The notes under the pieces: generated by a model | Told to the model about the DNA's origin: nothing | The model's input: the letters and a program-made list of their open reading frames with translations, nothing else | The model's database searches: none | Shown here: one piece after another, positions 41,842-63,893 of the stretch | Layout: each line of letters begins with the position of its first letter | Position numbering within the stretch: position 1 is the stretch's first letter | Position numbers and translations under genes: made by a program | IMG/VR virus record: IMGVR_UViG_3300022917_000009 | DNA: 64,000 nucleotides | Reading direction: 5' to 3' (one strand) | DNA from: an uncultured virus (IMG/VR IMGVR_UViG_3300022917_000009) | Taxonomy: Duplodnaviria; Heunggongvirae; Uroviricota; Caudoviricetes

Positions 41842-42092
41842 TTTTGCTCACCCACTCCGGCACCGGCTTCGCGTGGGACTGCGCCTGCGGGCGGCGGAAC
41901 CACGATGACTGGGAGCGCGTGCCCCGCGGCGAGGAAAACGCCATGGTGCGCGCATTTTTTGAGGCAACAACCGGGGCCGCGCCGGGAAGCGGTCAAATGG
42001 GACGCCCGCCCCGCAACGTCACCTGCTCTGGATGCGACACGACCTTTGTTGCGCAGGTCGCACCTTGGACGAGGAAGGAAGAGGAATCGTGA
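41838..42092 (+). CDS. zinc-ribbon protein
   Basis: CAC and CSGC motifs; GTGA overlap. Confidence 0.45.
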   Translation: MILLTHSGTGFAWDCACGRRNHDDWERVPRGEENAMVRAFFEATTGAAPGSGQMGRPPRNVTCSGCDTTFVAQVAPWTRKEEES

Positions 42093-42280
42093 CGCAACTC
42101 GACGTTCTGTACATCGCCATCGCCGTTGGGGTGGCTCTTCAAACCCTGAAGGAATTGCCCGGCCATCCGCTGTACCACAAGATAATCGTCGGCATCATAC
42201 TTGGCTCGATATGGCCGCTATTCCTCGGAGGAATTCTGGTTCGGATGGACGTGTTCCTTGTTAGAATGAGCAAGCCATGA
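42089..42280 (+). CDS. small membrane protein
   Basis: two hydrophobic helices. Confidence 0.5.
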   Translation: MTQLDVLYIAIAVGVALQTLKELPGHPLYHKIIVGIILGSIWPLFLGGILVRMDVFLVRMSKP

Positions 42281-42654
42281 CGCCCCTCTCCCCCTGTCCG
42301 TTCTGCGGCTCCACCGACCTGAAACTCACCTTTGGCGTGGTCTTCGCCATCTGGTGCAAGAACCCCGAATGCCGAGCGACTGGCCCCGAGGGAGAGACCG
42401 AGGAGGACGCGTGGAAGAACTGGAACAAGCGCCACGAGGCCCCGAAGGGATTCTACCGAGGAGACATAGGAAGCTCCAGTGAGATGTTGATATTTACCCC
42501 TGACGGAATCGTCACCGAGGATGGGAAGCCCTTTGGCGCCGAGGGGAACAAGGCCATCGGCTCTGGAAGTGACATGCTCACCTCCCGTACTGTCACACGT
42601 AGTGAACCATCGCCACCCCAAGGAGACGGGACAGATGCCGAAGTTCAAAGTTGA
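42277..42654 (+). CDS. Lar-family restriction alleviation-like protein
   Basis: LSPCPFCGS...C..C.ATGP....EEDAWKNWNKR. Confidence 0.7.
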   Translation: MTPLSPCPFCGSTDLKLTFGVVFAIWCKNPECRATGPEGETEEDAWKNWNKRHEAPKGFYRGDIGSSSEMLIFTPDGIVTEDGKPFGAEGNKAIGSGSDMLTSRTVTRSEPSPPQGDGTDAEVQS

Positions 42655-43096
42655 ATTCGAGATGGAAGCGGAAAGCGCATGGTGGGCTGAAAACAAACTG
42701 AAGGCAGCCCTTAGGCTCGCCACTGAAATGGCGGGAGAAAAGGTCGTGTCCGCATCCAAGATATTCGACATCCGCGAGGCACTGCGCGCCCACGACCTGT
42801 GGGAGTCGATCAAGTCCATCACCGTCAACGAGATCGTGCCCGGTTCCCAAGCACAGACAGGTGCCCCCGTCGGCGAGATGGCGGTTTTCTGCGTGTCTCG
42901 GAGAACGGACTACCAGATGCCCTTCGGGTACAAGCAAGTGTATTCAGGCCACATCCAGCCCGGCGACTTGTATTACTCCGAAGGCGAGAGTGCCCCCGCG
43001 TGGACCATCGTGCTTGCGAGAGGCTACATGGACGGAGACCCGGTGAAGAAGGCGCTCTGTGTTATCCGCAAGGAGGACGCCGACGATGGCTGCTGA
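42635..43096 (+). CDS. hypothetical protein
   Basis: AAGGAG RBS before MPKFKVEF. Confidence 0.55.
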   Translation: MPKFKVEFEMEAESAWWAENKLKAALRLATEMAGEKVVSASKIFDIREALRAHDLWESIKSITVNEIVPGSQAQTGAPVGEMAVFCVSRRTDYQMPFGYKQVYSGHIQPGDLYYSEGESAPAWTIVLARGYMDGDPVKKALCVIRKEDADDGC

Positions 43097-43571
43097 CATC
43101 GAAGACCTGCTGAAGGAAGTGCAGGAGTTGAGCGGCGACGTGTTGGTCGCCGAAGCAGCAAAGACAATTGGAATGAAGCCAACCGGAATCGGATGGCGAG
43201 TCGGCACAGTAGGCAACTTCCTAACCCACAGCCCCTTCGACCTCAACCGCGCGCTGGAGTGGCTGGACGAAAACTCCGAGAACTTCGAAGGCACTTTCCC
43301 TTGTCACCATCCCAACAGGCGCGGGCCGTGGATGGCTCATGGGAATTACGGGGAATGGCTAACCACTGGCGCCTCCCCGGCCGAGGCCGTCATGCGCGCC
43401 TGCGTGCTCGTGGCGAGGATGAAGGAGGCGGATGCAGCGAACCAACACCCCACGATTCCCGGCCCTCCCGAAGTGGACGCCGCAATTGCTCGGATCGCCG
43501 AGGAGAGCGGCGGGATCGTCCGCTACGAGGATTCGGAATTCGCCAAGGGGAAGGAGGATGCCGGGGAATGA
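43086..43571 (+). CDS. phage ABA-sandwich-like protein
   Basis: DLNRALEWLD...ASPAEAVMRACV. Confidence 0.45.
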   Translation: MAADIEDLLKEVQELSGDVLVAEAAKTIGMKPTGIGWRVGTVGNFLTHSPFDLNRALEWLDENSENFEGTFPCHHPNRRGPWMAHGNYGEWLTTGASPAEAVMRACVLVARMKEADAANQHPTIPGPPEVDAAIARIAEESGGIVRYEDSEFAKGKEDAGE

Positions 43572-43726
43572 GTAACCGTCGCCGCAAACTCGTGCCCATT
43601 CAAGTCCGAGAAATTCGCGCACTCCTCGCCGCGGGGGCAACGTGTAGCTCCATCGCCAAGCGGTTCGGAATCTCGCCCAGCACGGTGAAGACTATCAAGC
43701 AGGGTAAATCGTGGAGGGACGTATGA
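43568..43726 (+). CDS. small HTH protein
   Basis: QVREIRALL...IAKRFGISPSTVKTIKQGKSW. Confidence 0.65.
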   Translation: MSNRRRKLVPIQVREIRALLAAGATCSSIAKRFGISPSTVKTIKQGKSWRDV

Positions 43727-43980
43727 GCACCACCCGCATAATCCGCAACTCCGCCCGGTGCCTGTCCTGCGGCGAGGAGGTGGAGTCGAAGTCCCGATGG
43801 GATTACGTGGTGTGCTCATGCGGAAAGCTCGCGGTGGACGGGGGGCGCGACTACCTGAAGCGCATCACCAAGGGCCGCGATGACTACGAGGACACCAGCC
43901 AGACGATCACCGTCGAAGACCCGATGGTTGATCCGCCAGCGCCGAAGGAGCAGGAAGATGGCAGAGATAAGACACATTAG
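43723..43980 (+). CDS. zinc-ribbon phage protein
   Basis: NSARCLSCGEEVES..DYVVCSCGKLAVDGG.DYLKR. Confidence 0.65.
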   Translation: MSTTRIIRNSARCLSCGEEVESKSRWDYVVCSCGKLAVDGGRDYLKRITKGRDDYEDTSQTITVEDPMVDPPAPKEQEDGRDKTH

Positions 43981-44200
43981 GAGAAGGCAATTATACGCCA
44001 AGCACACCCTCTGCTTCTGGTGCGAAAAACCACTACTCAGAAGCGAAACCACCGTAGATCACCTAACCCCACAATCTCGGGGAGGAACTTTTTTCTACGG
44101 GAACCTTGTTCTTTCATGCGGACCATGCAACAACAAGCGCGGAGCCAGTGAGCCCACCGAAGAAGACTTCCGGCGCCAAGAAGAGCTTTACGGCCCATGA
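43958..44200 (+). CDS. HNH endonuclease
   Basis: CFWC...TVDHLTPQSRGG...NLVLSCGPCNNKRG. Confidence 0.85.
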   Translation: MAEIRHIRRRQLYAKHTLCFWCEKPLLRSETTVDHLTPQSRGGTFFYGNLVLSCGPCNNKRGASEPTEEDFRRQEELYGP

Positions 44201-44344
44201 CAGCAAAATCCCCCCCGGGACTGAGCAGCCGGGGGGATTCGCTTTGCCTGACGAGGGCGGTAAAATGTTCTCGCGCGTTAGCGCGCGCAACGACCGGACG
44301 AACCGATACCAGCGCCCCCATCCCCGCGCGCCGCGGGCCGGGAG

Positions 44345-44617
44345 TCAATCGGAACCGATAATCGGAAGCTCTTTGCAATCGGCCTCTGTCGCATCGCGCA
44401 AGAACTCGACATTAGTGCAGGAACACGGGCACTCGTTTTCGTCGTGGTCGTCTGCCCATTCGCCCATCTCGCGCCACAAATTGCTCAGGCAGTACGACCC
44501 ATCGTTGAAATGGAAGTTCACCAAGTTCGCATCCCACTGCGGATCGTCTGGGACGCTGACGACCATCTCGGAAACGACCCGAATCACGACTTTCTTGGTT
44601 GGTCCAGTGAGACTCAT
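44345..44617 (-). CDS. hypothetical protein
   Basis: ATGA overlap. Confidence 0.5.
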   Translation of the reverse strand: MSLTGPTKKVVIRVVSEMVVSVPDDPQWDANLVNFHFNDGSYCLSNLWREMGEWADDHDENECPCSCTNVEFLRDATEADCKELPIIGSD

Positions 44618-44805
44618 ACCGGCGCGTGCCCCCTGTCGATGGCGGCCTGCTTGATGGCCCTGAACTTCTCCTGCTCCTCCGGCGTCAGCACAATCGAGCA
44701 GGAGAACGTGGACTGAATGGCGGCGAGACGCTCAACGATTCCCGGCGGCATATCCTTGTAGACGGGCACTTCAGTCCACACGGTTCGGTCGTAAATCGTC
44801 CTCAT
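44614..44805 (-). CDS. hypothetical protein
   Basis: GGAGG RBS. Confidence 0.5.
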   Translation of the reverse strand: MRTIYDRTVWTEVPVYKDMPPGIVERLAAIQSTFSCSIVLTPEEQEKFRAIKQAAIDRGHAPV

Positions 44806-45049
44806 CGCGCCCCCTCCGGCAGCCGCATCGAGCGGTCGAAGGCAGCGCGGCCTTCTCTATGGCGCGCGACTCGATCCGGCGGATTCTATGCGTTAGGTGC
44901 TTATGCCTGCCCTTGTGGCGGCGGCACCCCTTCGGCCCGCAGTGAACACGCCAGTCGTCCCATTCCCACCCGTAGTTGAGAACGCTTCGGGCGATGTCGC
45001 CAGAGTATCCTTCGGTGGCACCTTGAACGTCTCGGCGATAGGACATCAT
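44771..45049 (-). CDS. hypothetical basic protein
   Basis: GGAG RBS. Confidence 0.4.
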   Translation of the reverse strand: MMSYRRDVQGATEGYSGDIARSVLNYGWEWDDWRVHCGPKGCRRHKGRHKHLTHRIRRIESRAIEKAALPSTARCGCRRGRDEDDLRPNRVD

Positions 45050-45687: not shown

Positions 45688-45912
45688 ATGGCTACTCAAC
45701 TCGAAAAGATTCAACGCGCTTTGGATGCAGGGGTCGTCAATCAAACGGACCTCGCGAGCGCCAGCGGGGTACATCGCCTCACTGTTCATCGCATTCACAA
45801 GCAGCCGGGATTCGATCCGCGCTGGAGCGACGTGATAAAACTGCATCATGCGCTGGGGAAGATTAAACGGCAAGTACAGGCGCACGCCCGCGGCAAGCGG
45901 GGTGCGGAATGA
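45688..45912 (+). CDS. Cro/XRE-like HTH regulator
   Basis: NQTDLASASGVHRLTVHRI...PRWSDVIKL. Confidence 0.7.
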   Translation: MATQLEKIQRALDAGVVNQTDLASASGVHRLTVHRIHKQPGFDPRWSDVIKLHHALGKIKRQVQAHARGKRGAE

Positions 45913-47873
45913 GCGCCCTCGAACGCATCCCCGTCCAACTCCCGCCGCACAACATGGAAACCGAGGCCGCAGTCCTGGGCGCCATGCTGATGGACAACGA
46001 CGTGATCCCCGATGTCCTTGGGATCGTTAAGCCCGAAGACTTCTATTTCGAGGGCAACCGAATCATCTGCGCGGCCATGGGCGAAATCTGGAACTCGGGA
46101 AGCCCCATAGACCTAACGCTTCTCGCAAACCATCTGCGCGAGCGGAAACTTCTCGACATAGCTGGCGGCGCCCTCCACATAGCCTCTCTTGAGCAGTACG
46201 TACTTTCCAGCGGAGCCGCGCCAGAAAACGCCCGTATCGTCGCGAAGATGGCCGAAGCGAGGCGGCTCTTCGAATACTGCCGGAAGGTTGTGACCGGGGA
46301 AATCCCGTGCCTAAACGGCACCATGGCGAGCACTCTCCGCGACGGCGCCATGATTATCAACGGCGCCCAGAAGCGCCTCGCGATTCGCCGCGAACTGAAA
46401 ACCGGACGCCCCGTCCTGCCAACATTCCCGGTTAACTGCCTGCCGGATTGGCTGGCGCGGTTTGTCGGCCAAGTCTCGTGGGCAAACGAAGCGAACATCG
46501 ACATGTGCTGCTTGCACGCCCTCGGAGTGATCGGCGCCGCACTTGGTGGCCGAGTTCGATGCAACGTCTACGACGATTGGTACGAAGCCATCCAGTTGTA
46601 TCTGCTCACCGTCCTTCCCCCTTCCGACCGGAAAACCAAGGCAACCTCGGAACTCATGCGCCCTGCCGACGACTACGAAGATGACCGGGAGCGCGCCCAC
46701 AAGAAAAAGGCCCGAAGCGCCGCCAAGATGATCCCGTTTTTGAAGAACAAGGTAAAAGCCCTCCAAAAGGAAGCTGCCAAGGGACCACAGGCTCGCGCAG
46801 GAACAGACACGGAACTCGAAGCGGCAGAGACACAACTCGACCTTGCCGAATCCGAGTCGGCCCCATACCGGTATTTCAACAACACAAACCCGACTCCCGA
46901 GTCACTGTGCGCCTGCATGGCCGCGAACAACGGGCGCGGCGCCATCATCACAGACGAAGCAGAGGTTTTCAACACGATCAGTTGGCGCGACGGATCGGCC
47001 AATCTGGGCATCTACCTGAACGGGCACACCAACGCGAAAATTGTGGAGAGTAGAAGCGCCGGGGACCGCATCATCAAATCCGCCGCCCTCACCATCAGCA
47101 TCGCCGCCCAGCCAGCAATGCTCGAAACCCTCGGGAAGGTGGCCGGGGGACGGGGCCGAGGATTCTTCGCCCGGTGGATCATTGCCTGCCCGGAATCTAG
47201 AATCGGATACAGGGAATCAACCTTCGGACGCGCCGTGGAAGACCACGTTCGCGAAACCTACCGGACCCAAGTTCGGAAAATGTACGAAATGCCCGACCGC
47301 GATGACGGGCATCGCTACTACATCGTCAAGTTCTCCAAAGAAGCCGCAGAACTCATGCGGGACATGGACGAATCGCGTGAGCACCGCCTCCGAGAAGGCG
47401 CCGATCTACACTCTTTGGGCGATTGGGCCGGTAAATACACCGGAATGGTCGCCCGGATCGCTACTATCCTACATTTCGCCGAGCATGTGTACGGGGAATT
47501 CGACGCCCGCGATGTAATCCGCAAAGACATCAGCCAAGAATGCTTGGAAAAGGCCGCGGAAATCGGCGAATACTGCATCGAACACATCAAACACGCCTAT
47601 TCCGTCATGGGAGCCGATAGCAGCGGAGCCATGGACGACGCCCGGAAGATCATGGGCTGGTGCGAAAAGACCGGAAACACCGTTTTCGAGCCGCGAGACA
47701 TCCAAATCGCCTTCCGATGGTGGAAAGCCGACGCGGAAAAGATGGAACAAGCCCTCTCCACTCTCGTCGCGAACGGATGGCTCGAAGAGGAAGAGGTCCG
47801 CCCCCCGAAAGGTGGTCGCCCAAAGCGCGTTTTCCACGTCACCGGGAGCATCGAAGAGACCATCAAGGAGTAA
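45909..47873 (+). CDS. replication protein: DnaB N-terminal domain fused to DUF3987/YfjI-like helicase domain
   Basis: PPHNMETEAAVLGAML (DnaB-N); LPPSDRKT, TPESL, DEAE, AQP, GRGFFARW; C-terminal wHTH GGRP. Confidence 0.8.
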   Translation: MSALERIPVQLPPHNMETEAAVLGAMLMDNDVIPDVLGIVKPEDFYFEGNRIICAAMGEIWNSGSPIDLTLLANHLRERKLLDIAGGALHIASLEQYVLSSGAAPENARIVAKMAEARRLFEYCRKVVTGEIPCLNGTMASTLRDGAMIINGAQKRLAIRRELKTGRPVLPTFPVNCLPDWLARFVGQVSWANEANIDMCCLHALGVIGAALGGRVRCNVYDDWYEAIQLYLLTVLPPSDRKTKATSELMRPADDYEDDRERAHKKKARSAAKMIPFLKNKVKALQKEAAKGPQARAGTDTELEAAETQLDLAESESAPYRYFNNTNPTPESLCACMAANNGRGAIITDEAEVFNTISWRDGSANLGIYLNGHTNAKIVESRSAGDRIIKSAALTISIAAQPAMLETLGKVAGGRGRGFFARWIIACPESRIGYRESTFGRAVEDHVRETYRTQVRKMYEMPDRDDGHRYYIVKFSKEAAELMRDMDESREHRLREGADLHSLGDWAGKYTGMVARIATILHFAEHVYGEFDARDVIRKDISQECLEKAAEIGEYCIEHIKHAYSVMGADSSGAMDDARKIMGWCEKTGNTVFEPRDIQIAFRWWKADAEKMEQALSTLVANGWLEEEEVRPPKGGRPKRVFHVTGSIEETIKE

Positions 47874-47989
47874 CCGGCCTCCCAGCACGCGGAACTTCCC
47901 CGACTTCGCTTCCTGCTAGCTTGTAAAAGCGCGGAACTCCCCCGATCAGAGACCTGCCACAAGCCCCCTCTACCGCAGACGACCCAAAT

Positions 47990-48467
47990 TGCAGCACTCG
48001 TGCAGCACTCGACCAAGGAATTTGTCAGATGACCGTTTACTAATCAGACCAAAACAGACCGAGTGCCGCATGGAGAGTTCCATAAGTGTCGAGTGCTGCA
48101 CAGTACTGCACGAGTGCTGTCAGCACTCGTTGTCCAATAGACTCAATGGTTTGGACCGTAAAAAAGTCGAGTGCTGCACGATCCCCCCCCGTGTAAATGT
48201 GTGTGTCTAAATCGACTGCTGCGTATCTGAATTCGTGCAACTTTCAATACTTATACTTATACATCTGATTTTACACGCGTTACGACGATTTTACTTTTAT
48301 ACACGCCGGAAATTTGCAGCACTCGACGATTTTGCCCTCCAAATGACTGATTCTGTTTGAGATCGATTGCTGCATTCCGATTGCAGCACTTGCAGCACTC
48401 GACCCGAAACGGGGTTTTGAAAACCAGTTCGTGATCGGTCGAGTACGAAAGTCAGTGCAGCACTCGG
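47990..48467. repeat. iteron cluster / putative replication origin
   Basis: about 11 copies of (T)GCAGCACTCG(A) in both orientations around an AT-rich core at 48240-48300. Confidence 0.75.
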
Positions 48468-49040
48468 TTTTGGGTGCCGAGTCTCCGTCGGTCCTTTCCG
48501 AGGGCATCGCAAAGGTCGTGAAACGCTACGTGAAACATTTGCCGGAAGCGGGCAACGCGGTTCGGCCTATCTTGTGGCAGCCATCCCGCCCACGCATTGC
48601 CACCGGGAACCGCCCTCCCGTAAGCCCCAGAAGGCCCAAATCCCCGTCCGAGCCATCCCCCACAGGCAAATGGCGATAGAGGTTTAAAAGGGCCGGGATT
48701 GAATCTGTGGGTATGGGGGAGGGCAAAAATCAAAATTGTAGACCTCATGGACGGTATGTATAGCGCAACCGCCCAGCCGAGGGGGCATGGGAAACCGGGC
48801 TTCGGAAACGAACCCCACCCCCCATCGACACCCCGCCGCCGACCGCCTCTCCTTTCGTAAACACTCACTCTTTAATCCCACCGTGACGGCGATGCGGTCC
48901 GGCATGCCTCACGATACCCGCATGAATGGCTGTGATCTATCGCATCTGCTACCAATACAACGTGCGTTGTGTTGGGTTAGGGCGAAGGATGGGCGAAGTT
49001 TTAAGGATGGTTGGGAAGGTCGATACCGCGCGCGAGATGA

Positions 49041-49082
49041 TGTAAAGTTTCTTTACAATGCTCGATGTAAAGTTTGTTTACA
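49041..49082. promoter_or_regulatory. tandem palindromic operators TGTAAAG-TTT-(C/G)TTTACA
   Basis: copies at 49041-49057 and 49066-49082. Confidence 0.6.
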
Positions 49083-49421
49083 TTCGGCTCCTCCGGCGAC
49101 CCCTCTCGCGAGGCAAACTGTTGCAATTTGCAATACCTATTTCGCGGTCCAATAGCCATGATTGATCGAATTGGCACGATTCCGCTCTGCCCTCGCGCCC
49201 CTTGACCAACCAATCAACTAAGCATTTCTCTGCCTAGCCTGTATGTAAATTTCTTCCCACCTATCCCTTGCCGTTCCCGAATCATCCTCCCCGCCGCGAT
49301 AACAATTGCCATTCATACCGTTGTCGTTGTTGAAGTTACTATTTCCTTCCGTTTTGGCATTGCTGTTGCTATCGTTGTATGTCACCGGCACGGACCGGCA
49401 GGCACTCTTAGGAGACGAGAT

Positions 49422-49682
49422 ATGGCGAACGCGACACGCACCCCAATCATCCGGGCAGCGGCCCACGAGTTGAGCGATTATCAGAATGCGGGCACCGGAT
49501 ATGGCCGCACGATTCCCAGTGGGGAGTTTATCGTGGTTGCCCGCGACGCTCGCGGGGACGAGTGGCAACACTCCGCGCTCTTGCCTCGCGATGCGGCGGA
49601 GACGCTTGCGGCAAAGGTGCGTGAGGTGGGGAGCATCAACCGCGCGCATTGGACGGAATTTCGTGGCGTGACAGTCCGCTGA
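49422..49682 (+). CDS. first early gene, hypothetical
   Basis: AGGAG RBS after long AT-richer non-coding region. Confidence 0.6.
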   Translation: MANATRTPIIRAAAHELSDYQNAGTGYGRTIPSGEFIVVARDARGDEWQHSALLPRDAAETLAAKVREVGSINRAHWTEFRGVTVR

Positions 49683-49757
49683 CAGGTCGAAACGCCTCTT
49701 TGGCGTCCGATGGTTTTGCCATCGCTGACGAGACCAAATCCCGCGACGTTAGCGGAC
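49674..49757 (+). ncRNA. hammerhead ribozyme, type II
   Basis: GGUC-GAAA-CGCC/GGCG-UC^-CGAUGG(UUUUG)CCAUCG-CUGACGA-GACC; distal stem GUCCGCUGAC/GUUAGCGGAC. Confidence 0.92.
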
Positions 49758-49779
49758 ACTAGACGAGAGAGACGAGACA

Positions 49780-50019
49780 ATGACAATCAAGCTGCATATC
49801 GTGGCAACAGGGCGCGTGGCACCGTACGGGATCAATGAGACCGTGGAGACGCGCAAGGCCACAACGGCGGAAGGCGTGCGGCGAGTGCTGACTGCCGCGC
49901 ACAAGTCCGGGCATCAAGTAATGGCGTCCGAAATCGACGCGGCCAAGTGCGCGGTTTTGCGGCATGGCGTGACGGTGCCCGCAATGTCCGGGATGGTCCG
50001 CATCCTCGCCGCCTGCTGA
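49780..50019 (+). CDS. hypothetical protein
   Basis: purine-rich RBS; sits between two ribozymes. Confidence 0.6.
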   Translation: MTIKLHIVATGRVAPYGINETVETRKATTAEGVRRVLTAAHKSGHQVMASEIDAAKCAVLRHGVTVPAMSGMVRILAAC

Positions 50020-50023
50020 TAAT

Positions 50024-50093
50024 CGCAGAGCACGCGCGGCCCTTTACCATCCGCGCCGCGCGCAATGCGGCAAGCCGGGTTGCAAGCCCCGGC
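50024..50093 (+). ncRNA. twister ribozyme, P5-type permutation
   Basis: GCA-GA-GCA, P1 CGCGCGGC/GCCGCGCG, C^AA-UGC-GGC, P4 GCCGG-GUUGCAAGCC-CCGGC; L4 UGC pairs with GCA (T1). Confidence 0.8.
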
Positions 50094-50122
50094 GAAACTC
50101 AAATCACTTCGGAGAAATCACC

Positions 50123-50299
50123 ATGCAGGCACGAATCGAAAACGGCAAACTCATTATCGAAATCGCCCTGATAGATGCCGTTCCATCTTCCTCCGGGAAG
50201 TCTCTTTTGATAGTCCAAGGCGGAGCGCAAAAGCCGGGGATTCAGCACATGGGGCGCCCGGTGACGGTGTCGGTCAACGCCTTCATCCCCGCGAAGTAA
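50123..50299 (+). CDS. 58-aa conserved small protein (PSSSGKS motif)
   Basis: MQARIENGKLIIEI...PSSSGKSLLI...VTVSVNAFIP; GGAG RBS; below ORF cutoff. Confidence 0.65.
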   Translation: MQARIENGKLIIEIALIDAVPSSSGKSLLIVQGGAQKPGIQHMGRPVTVSVNAFIPAK

Positions 50300-50344
50300 G
50301 CGAATCCACTTTTCACCCTCGCCGGACCATCCAAGGAGACTTCC

Positions 50345-50488
50345 GTGCACGTGCTCTTGCTCCATCCCCTAATCGCTTTGGCCTTCCTCGCGGCAGACGA
50401 CCGAAACCTATTTGCCGACTTCGCCGCTTCGCAGGTTTGGGCAATGCATTCGCAGGGCTTCCAAGCTATCGTTTTGGAGGGGTTTTGA
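50345..50488 (+). CDS. small hypothetical protein
   Basis: AAGGAG RBS, GTG start, TGATG coupling to AAA+ gene. Confidence 0.45.
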   Translation: MHVLLLHPLIALAFLAADDRNLFADFAASQVWAMHSQGFQAIVLEGF

Positions 50489-51123
50489 TGCCAACCCTCG
50501 CCGACAAATACCGCCCCGCGACACTTGACGACCTCGCCGGGTTTGACGACGTGAAGGGCAAAATCCGCCGCATACTTGCGCGGGGAAATGGGGCAGGCGG
50601 TCGCGCGTGGTGGCTGTCGGGACCGTCGGGAGTAGGCAAGACTTCGGCGGCCCGCATCATCGCCGCAAGCCTCGCCCATCCGGCATCCGTGCGGGAAATC
50701 GACGCGGGCACGCTGACTTGCGCGGCCCTTGAAGACATCGCCGACTCTTGCGCCTCCCGGTCAATTTTTGTGCCGCACGGCAACGCGCTAATCGTGAATG
50801 AAGCGCACGGGTTGCGAAAGGACACAATCCGCCGGTTGCTTGTGTGGCTTGAGGATTTGGCGCCGTGGACGACCGTTGTTTTCACCACGACAACCAAGGG
50901 GCAGATGTCCCTCTTTGAAGACCATCACGACGCGGCGCCACTCCTCTCGCGCTGCCTGTCGTTTGACCTCGACACGAAGGGCCAAGTCCCAGCCTTCGCC
51001 GCGCATTTGGGGAAGGTCGCCGAACGCGAGGGCATCCCCGTAACTCTCGACGCGTTGCGGTTCATGCTCGCGGGGAAGTCCAATAATCTCCGCGCGTGCT
51101 TGATGGAATTGGAAACCGCCTAG
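50488..51123 (+). CDS. clamp-loader-clade AAA+ ATPase (DnaX/RFC-like, no collar domain)
   Basis: LADKYRP, GPSGVGKTS, IVNEAH, LLSRC, NLRAC. Confidence 0.85.
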   Translation: MPTLADKYRPATLDDLAGFDDVKGKIRRILARGNGAGGRAWWLSGPSGVGKTSAARIIAASLAHPASVREIDAGTLTCAALEDIADSCASRSIFVPHGNALIVNEAHGLRKDTIRRLLVWLEDLAPWTTVVFTTTTKGQMSLFEDHHDAAPLLSRCLSFDLDTKGQVPAFAAHLGKVAEREGIPVTLDALRFMLAGKSNNLRACLMELETA

Positions 51124-51181
51124 CGCTTCCGCGCGCTTCGCACCTCGCCGCCCGCAGGAAAGGCCAAGGAGGCCAAGGACA

Positions 51182-51334
51182 GTGGAGCGAATCACCGCCG
51201 CACAAGCTCAGATTATGAAGCAGGTTTGCCTCATTGATCAAGTACTTGGAAAGGGGGGCGTCGAGATTGCGGGAATTCACGACGCACAGGCAGAGGATTG
51301 GGCGCGAGCAGAATGGAGCCGCGCCAACCCCTAA
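51182..51334 (+). CDS. small hypothetical protein
   Basis: AAGGA RBS, GTG start, stop just before hammerhead. Confidence 0.45.
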   Translation: MERITAAQAQIMKQVCLIDQVLGKGGVEIAGIHDAQAEDWARAEWSRANP

Positions 51335-51340
51335 CTCCCC

Positions 51341-51397
51341 GCCCTGACGAGACTCCCTTGGCCGGAGTCGAAACGCCGCGAGGCGTCGGCAATGCCA
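51341..51397 (+). ncRNA. hammerhead ribozyme, type I with pseudoknot
   Basis: GCC-CUGACGA-GACUCC(CUUGGCC)GGAGUC-GAAA-CGCC(GCGA)GGCG-UC^-GGC; loop II UGGC pairs with 3' GCCA. Confidence 0.92.
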
Positions 51398-51417
51398 GAT
51401 GACAAGGAGAAACGGAA

Positions 51418-52188
51418 ATGGGATTCCAAGCGGTCCATGAGGTGAAAGAGGCGAAGGCCAAGCGCCAGGAGCGGGCGGCTTTTTACACGCCGTTGTCGCT
51501 CGTTGCCGAATTGGTGGAATGGGCGGCGCCAATGCCCTCCATGCTCTGCCTTGAGCCATCGGCGGGAGACGGGCGGATTGTCCACGCGCTCCGAGAGGCT
51601 GGCGTGCGCGTGGTCCATGCCTGCGAGATTGACGACACAATGCGGGCGAAGTGTGAGAGCGAGGGCGCAACGATCCTCGGCGCTGACTTTCTCGCGGTTC
51701 CTCCCTCGGCGATTTACGACCGGGTTTTGATGAATCCGCCTTTCATCGGCGCCACGTACCGCAAGCATATCGAGCACGCTTTCCGGTTCCTTCGCCCCGG
51801 CGGCATGCTCGTTGCCATCGCCCCCAGCAAGGCAGAATTCGAGGTGTCCCAATCCGAATGGACATTGCCCGGCTGTGAAAATGTCGCATTCGAGCGCGTG
51901 GAATCCGAACGGTTCAAGGAGGAGGGGACGAACATCGCGACGATCATTGTCCGCATCTATGCCCCCGACGACCACCCCGCACCGCTTTACGATTGCAGCA
52001 ACTACGCGACGGGTAACGCCGCCGTGACCGTGGGAAGCAATTGCGAGACATACGAAGCCATCCGCCGCGACCCTGAGCGCGTGCGTGAGATTTCCCTCCC
52101 GTACATGCGGGGCTTTGGCCTCACGGGCTACGGCGTAAACTGGCAAGAGGTGCGGGAATATATCTGCGGTGAGGACGGCGACCAATGA
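51418..52188 (+). CDS. N6-adenine DNA methyltransferase (orphan)
   Basis: FYTP, LEPSAGDG (SAM binding), MNPPF catalytic motif. Confidence 0.85.
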   Translation: MGFQAVHEVKEAKAKRQERAAFYTPLSLVAELVEWAAPMPSMLCLEPSAGDGRIVHALREAGVRVVHACEIDDTMRAKCESEGATILGADFLAVPPSAIYDRVLMNPPFIGATYRKHIEHAFRFLRPGGMLVAIAPSKAEFEVSQSEWTLPGCENVAFERVESERFKEEGTNIATIIVRIYAPDDHPAPLYDCSNYATGNAAVTVGSNCETYEAIRRDPERVREISLPYMRGFGLTGYGVNWQEVREYICGEDGDQ

Positions 52189-52577
52189 AAACTGCACAAA
52201 CCGAATACGTGGACTATCGCGCCCGCGCCGCTGCTGAATTTGCCGAACGCATCACGGCGTTAGGCTTCACGGTCTACCTCGCCGAGTCGGGCCGGTATGG
52301 ATTTATCACAGACAACACCGAGAAGCGCGTTCTAAGCTTTTCTTTCGATGGGATAGAGAACGCGCTAAGCGGCAACTATGGCCCTCCCAGCACTCAGAGC
52401 GGAACCGGTTGGCGCCTCGACTTCGGCCCGGAATCGCTGCAATCGAAAGAGGATGTCCGGCGCGCGCTCTATGCCCTTCCGGCGTTTTGCGGTAACGGCT
52501 GGAAGTACCTTACAACCGTCAAGCAGCACCTCGCCGAATATGGCGCATCGTCGCGCTACACCAAGCATGGAGCCTAA
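52185..52577 (+). CDS. hypothetical protein
   Basis: ATGA overlap. Confidence 0.6.
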   Translation: MKTAQTEYVDYRARAAAEFAERITALGFTVYLAESGRYGFITDNTEKRVLSFSFDGIENALSGNYGPPSTQSGTGWRLDFGPESLQSKEDVRRALYALPAFCGNGWKYLTTVKQHLAEYGASSRYTKHGA

Positions 52578-52579
52578 CA

Positions 52580-52665
52580 GCCCGAAACTCCCCGCCTTTA
52601 CATTCACTTCCACTTCCGCGCGGGGAGTCTGGCGGTTTTGCCGCCACTGAAGAGCCCGAAAGGGC
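52580..52665 (+). ncRNA. hammerhead ribozyme, type II, aberrant stem II
   Basis: GAAA-CUCCCCGC/GCGGGGAG-UC^-UGGCGG(UUUUG)CCGCCA-CUGAAGA; stem II interrupted by 8-nt GCCCGAAA. Confidence 0.7.
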
Positions 52666-52704
52666 CTTGGGGCAGTGCAACGCAGGGATCAAGGAGACGG
52701 ACCG

Positions 52705-53022
52705 ATGAGCGAACAGAACGAACCGGCGGCATCAATTCGGATGCACCACGGCGGGTTGTTTAATCAGTTGCTAAATGAAACCGGGCGCGAGGTCGCCGTA
52801 ATTGCCTCCCACGACACGGCGACGGGAGCGCGCATGGTTGACTCTTACAACGCGCTTGCCGCGTACCCTAACCCGGCGGCGGTGCCGGGCGTGGTGGATG
52901 CGCTGAAGCGAGCAATTTCCATAATCGAAGACTTGCCCTTCCCCGACGACCTGCCTGCCAAAGACCTCCGCGCTGCCCTTGCGGCCCTCGGCGCTCCCAC
53001 TGCGGCGGAGGTGGGGAAATGA
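52705..53022 (+). CDS. hypothetical protein
   Basis: AAGGAG RBS. Confidence 0.6.
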   Translation: MSEQNEPAASIRMHHGGLFNQLLNETGREVAVIASHDTATGARMVDSYNALAAYPNPAAVPGVVDALKRAISIIEDLPFPDDLPAKDLRAALAALGAPTAAEVGK

Positions 53023-53747
53023 GCATCTACGGGACCACCTACAAGCCGTTCAGCTACGTGAAGGCCGACGTGGCCGTTGCTTACCTCGTGGAAAAGGCCG
53101 GATGGGTTTTGCGCCAGCGTGACGCCGACCATGGCGTGTTGGTTGCGCCGCAGAGGGACGACAACGGCGGGGAAATCTTCTTCCCGGTCTATCGCTCGCA
53201 CGCCACATCGGCGCGGGCGTGGGCATTCTCCGAAGAGCAATTGCACAAGTATCCGGGCATCCTCTCGACGCTCGCCGCGCTTTACGGCGGCACCGCGCGC
53301 GACATGGCAACCGAGATTTCCGGGATTTACGAAACCATCGTTGGGCGCGATAATGCCGGGCATCAGCGGTTTGTTGTGTGCTTCGGACTTTACAAGCCCA
53401 TTCCTCCGTCCTTCGTCGCCTTTATGCCGGTTATTTTCTCCATGGGCGAGATGCTAGAGAACGGCGAGCGGGTGACTTGTTACGGCTTCGCCCGCTCTGA
53501 GGCCGACATACCAGAGGGCGCCGTCATTGAGAACGTTTCCGTTTCCTCGGCAGTCGCACTTGGCTGGTCGTACGAAAAGGCCAGCCTATACGACGAGGAG
53601 GGTGTCGAGGGTTGGCGCTGGACATCTCCCGCCGGTGATACGTTTGACGAAATTGGAGGCTGGAACGAAGCGCCCGTTGTTCCTGAGGCGGCACGGCATG
53701 CCGTGAAGCGTTCCGAGCAGGCCGACGAAGCGGGGAGGCGGGGATGA
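53019..53747 (+). CDS. hypothetical protein
   Basis: ATGA overlap, GGAGG RBS. Confidence 0.6.
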   Translation: MSIYGTTYKPFSYVKADVAVAYLVEKAGWVLRQRDADHGVLVAPQRDDNGGEIFFPVYRSHATSARAWAFSEEQLHKYPGILSTLAALYGGTARDMATEISGIYETIVGRDNAGHQRFVVCFGLYKPIPPSFVAFMPVIFSMGEMLENGERVTCYGFARSEADIPEGAVIENVSVSSAVALGWSYEKASLYDEEGVEGWRWTSPAGDTFDEIGGWNEAPVVPEAARHAVKRSEQADEAGRRG

Positions 53748-53914
53748 CAACCTCATTCACAATCAAATACCTCACCAAGTGCGACGATATGGGGCGGTGT
53801 CAATTCACCCTCTCATGGTGCCAGCATTACGCCCCCGGATACGTGGGGATGCCGTGGATGCGCACTCAGGTTTTCTTCGCCGATCCCACAAGCTACGGAT
53901 TTCCCAGACCATGA
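53744..53914 (+). CDS. small hypothetical protein
   Basis: ATGA overlaps at both ends (MTTSFTIKY...). Confidence 0.5.
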   Translation: MTTSFTIKYLTKCDDMGRCQFTLSWCQHYAPGYVGMPWMRTQVFFADPTSYGFPRP

Positions 53915-54117
53915 CAGACAACGAGCTAATCGAGTACGGATTCCGAAAGGGCCACTTCTGGTATCTCGGCGAATTCGCGAAGCCCGGCAATCCACGGCAC
54001 AGCATCGACATCGTGGACGGGTGGAGAATGTCGCCCGCTTTCAAGTCCGGGAGGCTATCGGCGAATGCCCGACTAATCCTCACCCAGCACGCCACCGGCG
54101 ACGGAGAAATCAAATGA
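53911..54117 (+). CDS. hypothetical protein
   Basis: ATGA overlaps. Confidence 0.5.
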   Translation: MTDNELIEYGFRKGHFWYLGEFAKPGNPRHSIDIVDGWRMSPAFKSGRLSANARLILTQHATGDGEIK

Positions 54118-54749
54118 TCGTTACGACCGCCTTTTGTGACCGATGCGGGAAGCAGCAACCGCCCGACGTGTATTGGGCGGAGGTCGTCAAGACCTTCGTG
54201 TTTGACCTCCGCGCCGACGGGATAAATGGCGTCCCTCGCAACGTGGACCTGTGCGGATCGTGCCGCCGCGCGGTGATTGCCGCGATGGATGAAGCACTCA
54301 AGCCGCAACCATCTCCCGCCCCCACGTTCGCCGCGCCCATGACGAACGGAATGCCGGAAGGACTGAAGGAAATTACTCAGGGAGCGATGGCAACAGGTCG
54401 CTACGAAGGCTCGGAAGACACGATCATATTTCGGTCGCCCGATGGGAATTGGCGCCCGGTTGCGCGCGTGACGACCAACGTAGACACCGAAAACGTACGC
54501 GCACTCTTCGCCGCCGCCCCGGACCACGCCCTGCTGCTCGCGGCGATAATGGCCGGACGCGCCAATATGCTCTATCCGCATGAGATGGACATGCACGCGG
54601 ACGAAATTGAGGGAGTGCCAACCGAGGTACTTGTGCGGGACGGCGATGGCACCGTTGCGTATCCTATCGTGCGTGATTCATTCGGTGGACAGATAGTTGA
54701 CGACGCCCTGCGCGCCGCGCTCGTGAAGGCGCTGGAGGGGAAGCCATGA
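54114..54749 (+). CDS. zinc-finger-containing hypothetical protein
   Basis: CDRCG and DLCGSC motifs. Confidence 0.55.
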   Translation: MIVTTAFCDRCGKQQPPDVYWAEVVKTFVFDLRADGINGVPRNVDLCGSCRRAVIAAMDEALKPQPSPAPTFAAPMTNGMPEGLKEITQGAMATGRYEGSEDTIIFRSPDGNWRPVARVTTNVDTENVRALFAAAPDHALLLAAIMAGRANMLYPHEMDMHADEIEGVPTEVLVRDGDGTVAYPIVRDSFGGQIVDDALRAALVKALEGKP

Positions 54750-54922
54750 GACGGTTGATATATCGACTCCTCGGCGTCTGCTTCCATCACTGGAAATACG
54801 GCGCAGTTAAGAACCTGACTGCGACAGTACCCGGCTCTCCCGGCGAGTGGGAAGTTACGCGCCAAGAGCGAACCTGCCGCATCTGTGGGAAGAAGGAATT
54901 TGCCAAGATGTTGGAGTTGTGA
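54746..54922 (+). CDS. small zinc-binding protein
   Basis: CFHHW...CRICGK; ATGA overlap. Confidence 0.5.
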   Translation: MRRLIYRLLGVCFHHWKYGAVKNLTATVPGSPGEWEVTRQERTCRICGKKEFAKMLEL

Positions 54923-55039
54923 TTCTGCCCGCCTCGAAGCCCCTCGCCTGCGGCAGCAAGAACACGTCGCGCGTCGCAGGTCTGAGGCTTCAGGGCGCGC
55001 AGGGTTGGCGCTAGAAGGACACGACAAGGAGAGCCGAAC

Positions 55040-55297
55040 GTGGGAAAGAAAACCGCCGCACCCGTATCGCGATACGAAGCTGCCCTCGCCGACGAACATC
55101 CTCTCGCCGAGTGGTGCGAAGCATTGGCGACGAAGCCGAAGACCCGGCACTTGTCGCCGGAACTGATCTACGACGCTGCCGTGCGCAATTGCTGGGATGA
55201 GCGCCGGTTACGTCTGATGAGCCCGGCAGACCTCGCCGCGCTTGAAGTCCCGCATCCGAGTGTTACATGGCCATCTATGATTGAGGAGGCGCTCTAA
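55040..55297 (+). CDS. hypothetical protein
   Basis: AAGGAG RBS. Confidence 0.55.
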   Translation: MGKKTAAPVSRYEAALADEHPLAEWCEALATKPKTRHLSPELIYDAAVRNCWDERRLRLMSPADLAALEVPHPSVTWPSMIEEAL

Positions 55298-55725
55298 TGC
55301 TCTTCGCCGTCGAAACCACAGCATCCGCCTCGGTGAACCCCGCGCCGGAGTCGTTCGTCCGCCGCCTCGCCATGAAGTTCCGCCGCTTCACCGACGCACA
55401 AACCGCCGCGCGGGACGCTTCACTCTCGGCGACAAAGGGCGTGCTGAAGTGCAACGCCCGGGTGGTGCCGGAAGATGCGGAAGCCGAGCACGAACTCTCC
55501 CGCATGAAATTCTGGCGCTCCTGTTTCGAGAAGGCGCTGGACCTCCGCGCGGCGCAGTTTGAAAAGGCGAAGGCCAAGGCGCTGGAATTCCCCTGCGCTG
55601 AGACGCTCGCCGCCGTCACTGTCACGAAGACCAAGTGGGAGACGAACCCGACGCACGATGAAGTCCTGCGCCTTGTCATCGCCGAGGCTCGCGCGGAGTG
55701 GGCGCAGAGGGAGCGGGCACGATGA
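55297..55725 (+). CDS. hypothetical protein
   Basis: TAATG coupling. Confidence 0.55.
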   Translation: MLFAVETTASASVNPAPESFVRRLAMKFRRFTDAQTAARDASLSATKGVLKCNARVVPEDAEAEHELSRMKFWRSCFEKALDLRAAQFEKAKAKALEFPCAETLAAVTVTKTKWETNPTHDEVLRLVIAEARAEWAQRERAR

Positions 55726-55940
55726 GGCCGAACACTCACTACTCCCGCGTGGTCTATATCGACTTCCCGGCTTCCGACATCACGACCCTGCGAGCCATCG
55801 AAGAAGCGCACGAATTGGCCGTCGAGGAGGACGTTGTTGTGCGCTTCAACCTCAACGGCTGGGATTGCGAAGTGACGCGGTGGCACAAGCCGAAGGAAGT
55901 AGATGCGGCGTTTAAGAAGTGGTTGAAGGCTGAGCTATGA
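55722..55940 (+). CDS. hypothetical protein
   Basis: ATGA overlap. Confidence 0.55.
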   Translation: MRPNTHYSRVVYIDFPASDITTLRAIEEAHELAVEEDVVVRFNLNGWDCEVTRWHKPKEVDAAFKKWLKAEL

Positions 55941-56242
55941 CTCTCCGCCGATTCTTCGCCGCCATCCTCCCCTCACCCTCGGTGCCCCGCCGCTTTCCGC
56001 GCGCCTTGGTCTCCTCCCGCATGGAATTCTGGCAGGAGGCCAAGCGCGCGCTGTACCGCGAGCGATCCGAGACGTTGAACCACCTGCAATCCATCGCCGC
56101 GAACTTTCCGGGCGATGAAAACGAGGAGCGGGCCGGGCGCGCCGCTCTGCAATTCTCGGTGCCCCTCACGCACGCGGAAATCGTCGGCTGGATTCACGGC
56201 GAGGCCCTGCGCGAGGCGATGGAAGAGAGGAGCGGGAGATGA
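55937..56242 (+). CDS. hypothetical protein
   Basis: ATGA overlap. Confidence 0.55.
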   Translation: MTLRRFFAAILPSPSVPRRFPRALVSSRMEFWQEAKRALYRERSETLNHLQSIAANFPGDENEERAGRAALQFSVPLTHAEIVGWIHGEALREAMEERSGR

Positions 56243-56463
56243 GCGGAATCGAAACGAACAACCGCGAGGATCGCGAGGATGGCCGGTGGTATGCGGCTTC
56301 AGGCAGTGGTTCTTCGGCGCGCCCTTGGTTCGTCGGGCGCAAGATAGGTCCCGGGCGAGGGCACGAAAATGCCGAGAGTAGCAAAGGCATTCGCAGGTGC
56401 TTCGCAACTCGCCGCGTCGCTCAGGATGCAGCAGACAAATTGAACAATGAGGTGGCCAAATGA
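56239..56463 (+). CDS. hypothetical protein
   Basis: ATGA overlap. Confidence 0.5.
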   Translation: MSGIETNNREDREDGRWYAASGSGSSARPWFVGRKIGPGRGHENAESSKGIRRCFATRRVAQDAADKLNNEVAK

Positions 56464-56609
56464 CCTCCCTCCTCTCCCTGTTTCCCTGCTCGCCCTTGCT
56501 GATCGTGGTCGTGCTGGTCGCCGGGTCTTTTGTCTGCGGGCTTTTCTCTAGGCGCCCGCCTGAGTCGTGAACCTCGACGAACCGCCGCACTTCATCCTCG
56601 CCGCTCTTC

Positions 56610-56644
56610 GCCCCTCCGCTCCGGCTGAGGGGCTTTTCTTTTTC
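56610..56644 (+). terminator. intrinsic terminator
   Basis: GCCCCTC..GAGGGGC followed by TTTTCTTTTT. Confidence 0.8.
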
Positions 56645-56753
56645 CCTCGGCGACAACCACTTCCGCACGCTAAATAATTCTCGCCCTACCCCGCATTATT
56701 TCCTTGACCCGGCGCCCGCATTTTGAGGGCATGCGGCCAAGGAGAAAAAGCAA

Positions 56754-56969
56754 ATGGCAGACAACAAGACCAAGCGAGCCCCGACGGTAAGCGCGCGGGA
56801 GTTCGCGGCGAGTCACGGAGTCCACGTCAAGACCGTGCATGCCGCGTGCCGGGCCGGGCTGCTGAAGTTCAAGAAGGACGCGCTCGGGTTTTATCGCATC
56901 CCCGACGGGCCGAAAAACAGGGCGGCGTTCGCGAAGCGCCCGGCGCCGGGAAGGAAGCGGGGGAAGTGA
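56754..56969 (+). CDS. excisionase-like HTH protein
   Basis: VSAREFAASHGVHVKTVHAACRAG; AAGGAG RBS. Confidence 0.65.
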   Translation: MADNKTKRAPTVSAREFAASHGVHVKTVHAACRAGLLKFKKDALGFYRIPDGPKNRAAFAKRPAPGRKRGK

Positions 56970-57199
56970 GCAACCACACATACACCGAGGAGCAGGTTCG
57001 CAAAGCCGTTGCCGATGCGTTCGGAGTCGGGATGGCGATGGGTCTGATAGATGCTGGCGTGGACCCTGTAACCAGCATCATATCAATTTCCAGATACACG
57101 GATAACGGGGATCGCGTGGTTGCCATCCGTTCCATACAGGACAAGGTAGTCGCGAGGCTAGTGGCTGGGGTGGCCTTAAGGAAGTCGCAAGAGAACTGA
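56966..57199 (+). CDS. hypothetical protein
   Basis: GTGA overlap; YTEEQVRKAV resembles the 38941..39177 N-terminus. Confidence 0.5.
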   Translation: MSNHTYTEEQVRKAVADAFGVGMAMGLIDAGVDPVTSIISISRYTDNGDRVVAIRSIQDKVVARLVAGVALRKSQEN

Positions 57200-57249
57200 T
57201 CCCAGCAGGTCCGCCGCGCAGTACATTCTGAAGAGGAGCAAGGACACCG

Positions 57250-57867
57250 ATGCCTACCGGATACACAGCACCAGTTGCAGACGGAGAGATTGTGGAGTTC
57301 AACGAGTTCGCATGGAACTGCGCACGGGCATTCGGCGCACTGTACTTTCTGCGCGATGCCGACGAAGGCAAGGATGGGCAGCGCCGCATTCCGAAGACGC
57401 TCCCGACCGTGTGCGACTGGAACCAAAAGCGCCTTCAGGAATCTGTAGCCGCTCTCGCCGCCTTCGAAAAGATGAGCCCCAAAAGGCTCGTGGCCGCATA
57501 CGAAAAGCACGTGCGAGACGCGAAGGAAACCGGGAAGAAGTATGCCGCAGAGGTCCGTGAAAAGAAGCTGCGATACAACACCATGCTCAAGAAGGTGCGG
57601 GCGTGGGAATCCCCGAGCAGCGATCACGAGGAATTCAAGAAGTTCATGATCCAGCAATTGGAGGAGTCCATCCAATTCGATTGCGGGCATACGTACAAGC
57701 CGGAATGGGCCAAGAGCATCGTCATTTTCGTGGCTCAAAGAATCGCCTCGCTCAATCGCGACATCGAATACCACACCAAGGAGCACGCCGCCGAGGTCGA
57801 GCGCACTGCTGGCCGCAACGCGTGGATCACAAAGCTGGCCGAATCTCTGGACGCCAAAGGAGCCTGA
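57250..57867 (+). CDS. conserved phage hypothetical protein
   Basis: MPTGYTA..F.EFA..CARAFGA..W..P..DH..K.FMIQQL family pattern. Confidence 0.65.
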   Translation: MPTGYTAPVADGEIVEFNEFAWNCARAFGALYFLRDADEGKDGQRRIPKTLPTVCDWNQKRLQESVAALAAFEKMSPKRLVAAYEKHVRDAKETGKKYAAEVREKKLRYNTMLKKVRAWESPSSDHEEFKKFMIQQLEESIQFDCGHTYKPEWAKSIVIFVAQRIASLNRDIEYHTKEHAAEVERTAGRNAWITKLAESLDAKGA

Positions 57868-57871
57868 CCCC

Positions 57872-58378
57872 ATGACCTTATCGCCGAAGCCAGCAGAGAA
57901 GATCGGATTTCGCTACCAAGAAGACCAAGGACAACGGTTCGACGTCCACGACCTCGACAGACACGCCCGCGTCGCCACGTTCTACAACGAGGAGGACGCC
58001 AAGCAGTACGTCATTGAGCACAACGCCTGCGCGCCCTTCGCGAACCCCGCAGCGTTGGGACAGGCGGTGGAGGCGCTGCGGGAGCTGATCCGTGCTGACG
58101 GCGCTCTGATGCGGGTAGGTGAGGGATCGCCAAATCGCGTCGACGTTGAGAACGCTGTGCGCGGGTGCTTCCATAACGCCCGTGCTGCTGTCGCGGCCCT
58201 CGACGCAGGCGCGCCCAAGTTCGCATTAGGAGACAAGGCTCTAGTTGTTTCCGATTTGGCGGGCGTGCCAGACAAGATTGGCGTCGTGACGCGGGTTAGC
58301 CCCGGGCCGAATGGAACCGAGTGCGAGGTGAACGGCTCTTGGCACTGGGAAAATACACTGGGAAAGGTGCCTCAATGA
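57872..58378 (+). CDS. hypothetical protein
   Basis: AAGGAG RBS. Confidence 0.55.
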   Translation: MTLSPKPAEKIGFRYQEDQGQRFDVHDLDRHARVATFYNEEDAKQYVIEHNACAPFANPAALGQAVEALRELIRADGALMRVGEGSPNRVDVENAVRGCFHNARAAVAALDAGAPKFALGDKALVVSDLAGVPDKIGVVTRVSPGPNGTECEVNGSWHWENTLGKVPQ

Positions 58379-60571: not shown

Positions 60572-60589
60572 GCACGCGCGGTCGCCGAG

Positions 60590-63850: not shown

Positions 63851-63893
63851 TCACCCAACCCGCCCGGCGCCGCCGGAGAATAAGGAGCAGTAA

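Follow-up and report, generated by a model that had tools for sequence, protein, structure and literature searches.

A type-P5 twister ribozyme between two small genes of a phage-like operon that also carries hammerhead ribozyme candidates

Positions 50024-50093 on the plus strand of the window, the whole 64,000-nucleotide stretch of DNA that was analysed, are, judged by their match to the family model, a genuine type-P5 twister ribozyme. The element, CGCAGAGCACGCGCGGCCCTTTACCATCCGCGCCGCGCGCAATGCGGCAAGCCGGGTTGCAAGCCCCGGC, lies between two small co-oriented genes of what looks like a phage or a similar mobile element. The best overall explanation for its presence, which we regard as probable, is that it processes a polycistronic RNA into single-gene mRNAs capped by hairpins.

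The twister class was reportedly described by Roth et al. in 2014. A cmscan search of the whole window, covering both strands and all 4227 Rfam families, matched twister-P5 (RF02684) at 50024-50091 on the plus strand, over model positions 1-58 of 58, with a score of 50.2 bits against a gathering threshold of 37.6 and an E value of 1.8e-7, or 1e-8 when the search was carried out on a 3.7-kb stretch. This match is far above chance level and represents the sole Rfam family at or above gathering in the 64 kb; no second family was found in the whole window even at E values up to 5, and these passes included the regions 41612-45047 and 55100-64000. At E values up to 10, the sub-stretches 47800-51500, 51250-51450, 49660-49790 and 52500-55100 yielded only the twister, a sub-threshold Hammerhead_1 match of 14.9 bits, and noise, which included miRNA-like hairpins and drz-agam (11.2 bits). 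All the defining features of RF02684 that can be read from a sequence are present. The sequence-only reading of this DNA had claimed a circularly permuted (type P5) twister and had suggested the twister-P5 covariance model as a check, which gave the score above, beyond the curated threshold. Its P2, GA spacer, T1, P1 of 8 bp with a 14-nt loop, L1 and P4, its cleavage site at 50063/50064 and its C in place of the usual U before the scissile A were all found again.

The helices follow each other in the order of the P5 permutation (5' strand of P2, P1 hairpin, 3' strand of P2, P4 hairpin), with 4 bp in P2, 8 bp in P1 and 5 bp in P4, all of them Watson-Crick. The 5' strand of P2, CGCA (50024-50027), pairs with UGCG (50066-50069) in both the cmscan alignment and the MFE fold, and is followed by the GA spacer (50028-50029) and by the 5' strand of T1, GCA (50030-50032), which in the cmscan alignment pairs with U50081, G50082 and C50083 in the loop of P4. 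The P1 hairpin (50033-50062), supported by the alignment and the MFE fold, joins 50033-50040 to 50055-50062 and has a 14-nt loop (50041-50054), longer than the tetraloop of the consensus; with P1 capped in this way, both ends of the RNA emerge from the fold on the P2/P5 side. L1 consists of C50063, A50064 and A50065 (50063-50065), and alignment to the consensus UAAUGC places the predicted scissile bond between C50063 and A50064, the latter being the conserved adenine. The segment 50066-50071 comprises the 3' strand of P2 as aligned by cmscan and, immediately after it, the 5' strand of T2, G50070 and C50071, which is complementary to G50086 and C50087; the T2 bases are invariant in the sampled sequences. 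The P4 hairpin (50074-50093), found by cmscan and in the MFE fold, pairs GCCGG (50074-50078) with CCGGC (50089-50093) around the 10-nt loop GUUGCAAGCC (50079-50088) that carries the 3' strands of T1 and T2. The cmscan match stops at 50091, and the sequence makes P4 two pairs longer, to 50093. Both the membership in the family and the helices can be considered established.

In the cmscan alignment the upper-case loop positions of the consensus, AAUGC, GCAAG and CAAGCC, are all matched, and the departures from the consensus are the base before the scissile bond (N-1), the exchange of one P4 pair, one linker base, and two T1 pairs. The pseudoknot-free MFE fold recovers P1, P2 and P4 with an energy z-score of -1.2, a value that is not significant alone, as expected for a GC-rich pseudoknotted RNA (the GC content of the RF02684 match is 74%). 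In an MFE alternative, G50030 and C50031 are joined to G50062 and C50063, a pairing that exists only because N-1 is a C and that, by this prediction, would be in competition with T1 and could delay folding. P5 pairs are absent from the Rfam model RF02684. The sole P5 candidate consists of 50011-50016 and 50125-50130, located 7 nt and 31 nt from the core, with a fold z-score of -0.9: GCCUGC (50011-50016) and GCAGGC (50125-50130) could pair across the twister, over the start codon of ORF58 and the next two codons. Such a pairing, which is without statistical support, could be a distant P5 or a translational occlusion that is relieved by cleavage.

For comparison with other viral sequences, a degenerate twister-P5 pattern was searched in IMG/VR and matched at least 122 stretches, which together with five further loci and the window gave 123 unique matches among the matches listed. 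A structural filter that required all three T1 pairs and at least 4 P1 pairs, with one mismatch allowed, was passed by 75, and a stricter P1 filter by 31. T1 in the window is GCA:UGC versus GgG:CcC in the consensus, with two of the three pairs changed on both sides and the pairing kept. In 76 unique sequences chosen on P1 alone, both variable T1 pairs were kept in 75, among the matches listed, against a mean of 39.7 and a maximum of 48 of 76 in 1000 shuffles; the pair types, among the matches listed, were UG:CA in 47, GA:UC in 8, GG:CC in 6 and CA:UG in 6. The T1 covariation, as measured in these alignments and independently of how the sequences were selected, is strong, and the complementarity of the pseudoknot is established. 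The changes in T1 are compensatory, not disruptive, which argues for continued selection.

The base at N-1 is C50063 versus U in the consensus of RF02684, where U is not a defining feature. The U preceding the scissile A has been called both "less conserved" and "nonconserved", and its base points outward (PMC5408937). The CHiTA study, which deals with type-P1 permutes only, uses the site descriptor "NA" and finds imperfections at -1 to be broadly tolerated (PMC11662667). Among the 75 filtered viral sequences, the window included, N-1 is U in 66, C in 7, G in 1 and A in 1, among the matches listed. Rfam was also run on the 20 of 127 loci with a base other than U at N-1 in the pattern match, and, among the matches listed, six elements with C at the site (L107, L125, L058:1624-1681, L034, L078 and L124) and one with G (L077) scored at or above gathering; in the other 13 of the 20 loci Rfam found no twister match. 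These include 11 of the 17 loci with C at N-1, among the matches listed, which are chance pattern matches without an Rfam match at gathering, as well as L089, also without an Rfam match, and L119, which is a tRNA. A genome scan restricted to one genome per species and to T1 GCA:UGC found 86 stretches, 78 of which passed the P1 filter, with U at N-1 in 45, C in 20, G in 10 and A in 3. By these counts C at N-1 is a frequent natural variant and nothing special. The C^A site had been singled out earlier as notable: the C is present, but it is a common variant (7/75 viral sequences among the matches listed, 20/78 genomic ones) at a nonconserved position (PMC5408937).

The T1 GCA:UGC subfamily found in the genome scan is centred on the Acidobacteriota, with about 59 to 61 of the 80 titled loci coming from Acidobacteriota MAGs. 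These copies share with the window the T1 variant and a nearly identical 3' half (AAUGCGGCA..CCGGUUGCAAGCCCGG), as well as a soil-type habitat and a similar GC content; habitat and GC content hint at an acidobacterial host. They differ in the sequence and loop of P1, and lie in MAG contigs that in some cases reach megabases, where the adjacent upstream ORF is often missing. Stop-ribozyme-start placement is less regular in these genomic copies. No relatives of the window proteins were found in the genome loci by tblastn at E values up to 1e-3, and a Pfam search of 24 ORFs beside acidobacterial twisters revealed nothing consistent, with STAS, DUF932 and HTH appearing once each. The loci L164-L249 form a conserved twister-P5 subfamily of about 57 nt with T1 GCA:UGC and the P1 loop GCGAACCUGC, widespread in Acidobacteriota MAGs, and these twisters often precede an ORF of 58-79 aa without a Pfam family.

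The window, which has a GC content of about 60%, looks like part of a novel phage-like element of about 74 kb, probably from a leaf-litter metagenome: the one sequencing run found to contain the stretch is a DNA run of that kind, and the search listed no RNA run. The minus strand includes large genes for which family matches are few or lacking, one of them with a polyvalent-protein domain, and the plus strand has a run of small genes around a helicase, an AAA ATPase and a methyltransferase. Family searches identified a serine recombinase (36583-37617) and, on the plus strand, a DnaB-N/DUF3987 helicase (45909-47873), the AAA ATPase (50503-51123) and the methyltransferase (51418-52188). The genes on both sides of the twister probably belong to a co-oriented early or replication operon and would be transcribed together. 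No close relative of the phage-like element was found: the region 49400-50700 had no DNA match among the INPHARED phages, tblastn with the helicase gave only matches below 60% identity, none of 6 pattern matches was confirmed in an IMG/VR search with helicase peptides, and a search of 5.8 billion proteins found only two helicase relatives, with 31% and 27% identity. Comparison by tblastn of the window proteins with the viral twister loci gave only noise (E > 0.08).

The gene upstream of the twister, ORF79 (79 aa), occupies 49780-50022 on the plus strand including the tandem stops TGA TAA, and was taken from the ORF list with a third-position GC content of 0.78. The downstream gene, ORF58 (58 aa), extends on the plus strand from an ATG at 50123 to 50299, with a third-position GC content of 0.68, and is preceded by the Shine-Dalgarno sequence GGAG (50111-50114, plus strand). 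Neither protein had a Pfam or PHROG match. Between ORF79 (49780-50019) and ORF58 there are 103 nt, most of them taken up by the twister, which begins 4 nt past the stop (TGA) and ends at 50093, 30 nt before the ATG. In the ORF79-ORF58 stretch the frame-specific third-position GC content supports both small ORFs and speaks against a long overlapping ORF (50065-51123). Promoter-like and terminator-like sites in 47800-53200 showed no excess over shuffled sequences. Two other regions are of note. A 1.5-kb segment after the helicase gene (47874-49421, GC 0.53) is without a convincing gene and could be a replication origin; it includes a long imperfect inverted repeat (47989-48111), the source of a spurious miRNA-like Rfam match. 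A 117-nt intercistronic gap at 54923-55039 (plus strand) has an unusually stable predicted fold (-54 kcal/mol) and is the same kind of slot as those of the ribozymes; no Rfam family was found in it.

The position of the twister relative to its neighbors recurs in viral twister-P5 sequences. In 73 filtered viral sequences with enough flank, among the matches listed, a co-oriented ORF of at least 35 codons ended between -12 and +40 nt from the ribozyme start in 69 (median 1), a Shine-Dalgarno sequence and a start codon were located 14-72 nt past the ribozyme end in 59 (median 27), and both features were found in 56; the same three counts on the antisense strand, used as control, were 31, 14 and 8 of 73. 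The recurrence of stop-ribozyme-start placement is therefore established among these matches, and on these counts the placement of the window twister is typical of viral twister-P5. Some IMG/VR contigs carry twister-P5 arrays with a copy behind almost every small gene, as seen in L018 (six pattern matches in 2.9 kb), L058 (four in 1.8 kb) and L002. The last of these has five twisters at or above gathering in 3 kb, each beginning 0-15 nt after a high-GC3 ORF and separated from the following one by a few tens of nt.

Other gaps of the same operon include candidate ribozymes of a second class. A predicted type II hammerhead occupies 49685-49735 (plus strand) in the gap before ORF79 (49683-49779), with stems III, I and II of 5, 7 and 4 bp, respectively, the last being open (GGUC/GACC), the elements GAAA, GUC and CUGACGA in its core, and GGUUUUGCC at the apex of stem I; cleavage is predicted after C49707. 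The descriptor match includes the features of type II hammerheads, namely CUGANGA, GAA, A15.1-U16.1 and H17, stems I and III closed and stem II open. At minimal thresholds the descriptor found any match in 2 of 200 simulated windows. A search of 131 nt with Rfam showed no match to this element (the gathering threshold of RF02276 is 37 bits), even when E values up to 10 were allowed. Of 36 IMG/VR matches to the stem I/core pattern, 17 can be parsed as the same design and the other 19 do not parse as hammerheads. When the window copy is aligned with 13 unique viral relatives (n=14), compensatory changes are seen in 11 of 17 pairs and the core is invariant. Two of the viral relatives were given 33.4 and 24.1 bits by RF02276, below its 37-bit gathering threshold; the family is therefore real but under-recognised.

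A type I-like candidate is found at 51341-51390 (plus strand), upstream of the methyltransferase gene; it begins 6 nt past ORF50, and the ATG of the methyltransferase follows after 27 nt. Stem II is 6 bp long, stem III has 5 bp and the loop GCGA, and stem I has only 3 bp. The core includes CUGACGA, GAAA and GUC, and cleavage is predicted after C51387. The full descriptor was satisfied in 0 of 300 simulated windows, and the Hammerhead_1 score was 14.9 bits against a gathering threshold of 34. A hammerhead-like element in a further gap (52583-52654, plus strand) includes CUGAAGA, GAAA and GUC, with cleavage that would occur after C52629. Its stem I loop, GGUUUUGCC, is the same as that of 49685-49735, its stem II has a single canonical pair, and the sequence continues into a GCCC-GAAA-GGGC hairpin; no Rfam match was obtained for it in the scan of 52500-55100 at E values up to 10. 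Active hammerheads with a stem II of one or two pairs and a pseudoknot between loop I and the tail have been reported (PMC3088659), so the element may be functional, as a variant whose stem II has one pair, or else dead. The proposal that a second ribozyme class plays the same positional role is borne out by the hammerheads in the preceding gap (49685-49735) and, type I-like, in a later one (51341-51390). The argument drawn from it, that two unrelated classes in the same slots point to selection for cleavage, is already in print (PMC6765202; PMC3088659).

A scheme for the action of these elements starts with the nascent polycistronic RNA, in which P1, P2 and P4 would fold and the P4 loop would dock through T1 and T2. 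Self-cleavage would then take place at the C50063/A50064 bond through internal transesterification, the twister reaction, in which the conserved adenine and a loop guanine have acid-base roles (PMC5408937) and which, as in all such ribozymes, leaves a 2',3'-cyclic phosphate and a 5'-OH (PMC8782182). The upstream product, carrying ORF79, would end in the 8-bp P1 hairpin followed by a C with a 2',3'-cyclic phosphate. The downstream product would start with HO-AAUGCGGCAA and continue with the P4 hairpin, 10 nt from the 5'-OH end, the Shine-Dalgarno sequence and ORF58. Cuts after C49707, by the type II hammerhead, and after C50063 would release an ORF79 message of 356 nt with a hairpin at each end. 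The MFE fold of this product has hammerhead stem I at the extreme 5' end and the twister P1 at the extreme 3' end, and the ends are unpaired with each other. The operon would in this manner be split into single-gene mRNAs with ends protected by ribozyme hairpins, and stability and translation would be uncoupled from one gene to another without the participation of host RNases. We infer the cleavage by this copy, the co-transcription of the genes and the effect of cleavage on gene expression. Single-gene processing has been proposed for clustered prophage hammerheads (Perreault et al. 2011, PMC3088659), and all hammerheads of three prophage arrays cleave in vitro (same source). The processing idea has been extended to twisters, with their function still undefined and an effect on phage expression unproven for any of them (PMC6765202).

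Three other explanations have been considered. That the element is a true twister descendant but catalytically weak or dead, contributing at most a pair of stabilising hairpins to the spacer, is unlikely in our opinion. It would agree with a C instead of a U at N-1, with the unusual length of the P1 loop (14 nt), with the MFE alternative that joins G50030/C50031 to G50062/C50063 at the cost of T1, and with a score of 50.2 bits in the lower half of the scored viral examples (36 to 70 bits, among the matches listed); in addition, some clustered ribozymes may not work (PMC3088659). However, all the highly conserved loop nucleotides of the model are kept and the changes in T1 are compensatory, P1 has been reported as non-essential for catalysis (PMC5113685; PMC11662667), and many members of the same subfamily have C at N-1 (20/78). 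We give even less credit to the notion that we are dealing with a chance resemblance or with another structured element of GC-rich intergenic DNA, such as a terminator or an attenuator, which is very improbable and looks already refuted. The region is indeed GC-rich (74% in the match) and its fold z-score of -1.2 is unremarkable, but the twister was the only match across all Rfam families and both strands, at an E value of 1.8e-7, every one of the sequence-specific loops (AAUGC, GCAAG, CAAGCC) fits, and there is no terminator-like U tract downstream.

The third alternative takes cleavage as given and has an RtcB-type ligase join the ends of the 356-nt ORF79 RNA, to generate a circular mRNA or to religate the products. 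RtcB joins 5'-OH and 2',3'-cyclic phosphate ends. These are the ends expected from the reaction (PMC8782182), the predicted cuts after C49707 and C50063 enclose exactly one gene, and circular or spliced products have been raised as possible for clustered hammerheads (PMC3088659). On the other hand, the MFE fold places each end of the 356-nt product in its own hairpin, no ligase gene was recognised within the window by Pfam or PHROG, and Perreault et al. sought circular products and detected none (PMC3088659). We consider such ligation improbable, more so than a weak or dead ribozyme, and processing of the polycistronic RNA into hairpin-capped single-gene mRNAs remains the preferred explanation.

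In both the type-P5 twister and the type II hammerhead the scissile bond lies between closed hairpins and the open helix is very short, so that after cleavage the new 3' terminus would carry one hairpin and the 5'-OH terminus a second one, at the end itself or close to it, with fast separation of the products. A tentative extension of the processing model, which we regard as possible but doubtful, is that the permutation of the ribozymes is itself selected in phage operons, and that the ORF79 message is a self-made, stabilised monocistronic mRNA of 356 nt (49708-50063). If the permutation were selected, the 5'-OH and cyclic-phosphate ends could also make this message a substrate for an RtcB-type enzyme.

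Compared with the twister-P5 family as modeled in RF02684, the window copy has a full-length match, P1, P2 and P4, complementarity in T1 and T2, and the conserved L1 and L4 nucleotides, and differs in the C at N-1, the GCA:UGC version of T1, the 14-nt P1 loop and the lack of a clear P5 helix. It resembles the prophage hammerhead clusters (PMC3088659) in that a single co-oriented phage operon has several ribozymes in successive gaps, two of them enclose one gene (ORF79), and the same single-gene processing has been proposed; it differs in that one slot in the window holds a twister in place of a hammerhead. Twisters and hammerheads are known to share gene neighborhoods, an observation that a review credits to the original twister paper (PMC6765202), and clusters of ribozymes on either side of phage genes have been known since 2011 (PMC3088659), so the layout of the window is an ordinary one.

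The current picture of phage ribozymes is unchanged by this find, which adds one more well-formed phage operon punctuated by unrelated self-cleaving ribozymes, in a lineage without close relatives (helicase identity at most 31%). The placement of viral twister-P5 is now quantified (56/73 versus 8/73 on the antisense strand, among the matches listed), N-1 varies freely in a twister subfamily centred on the Acidobacteriota, and the Rfam type II hammerhead model under-scores a hammerhead design that recurs in phages.
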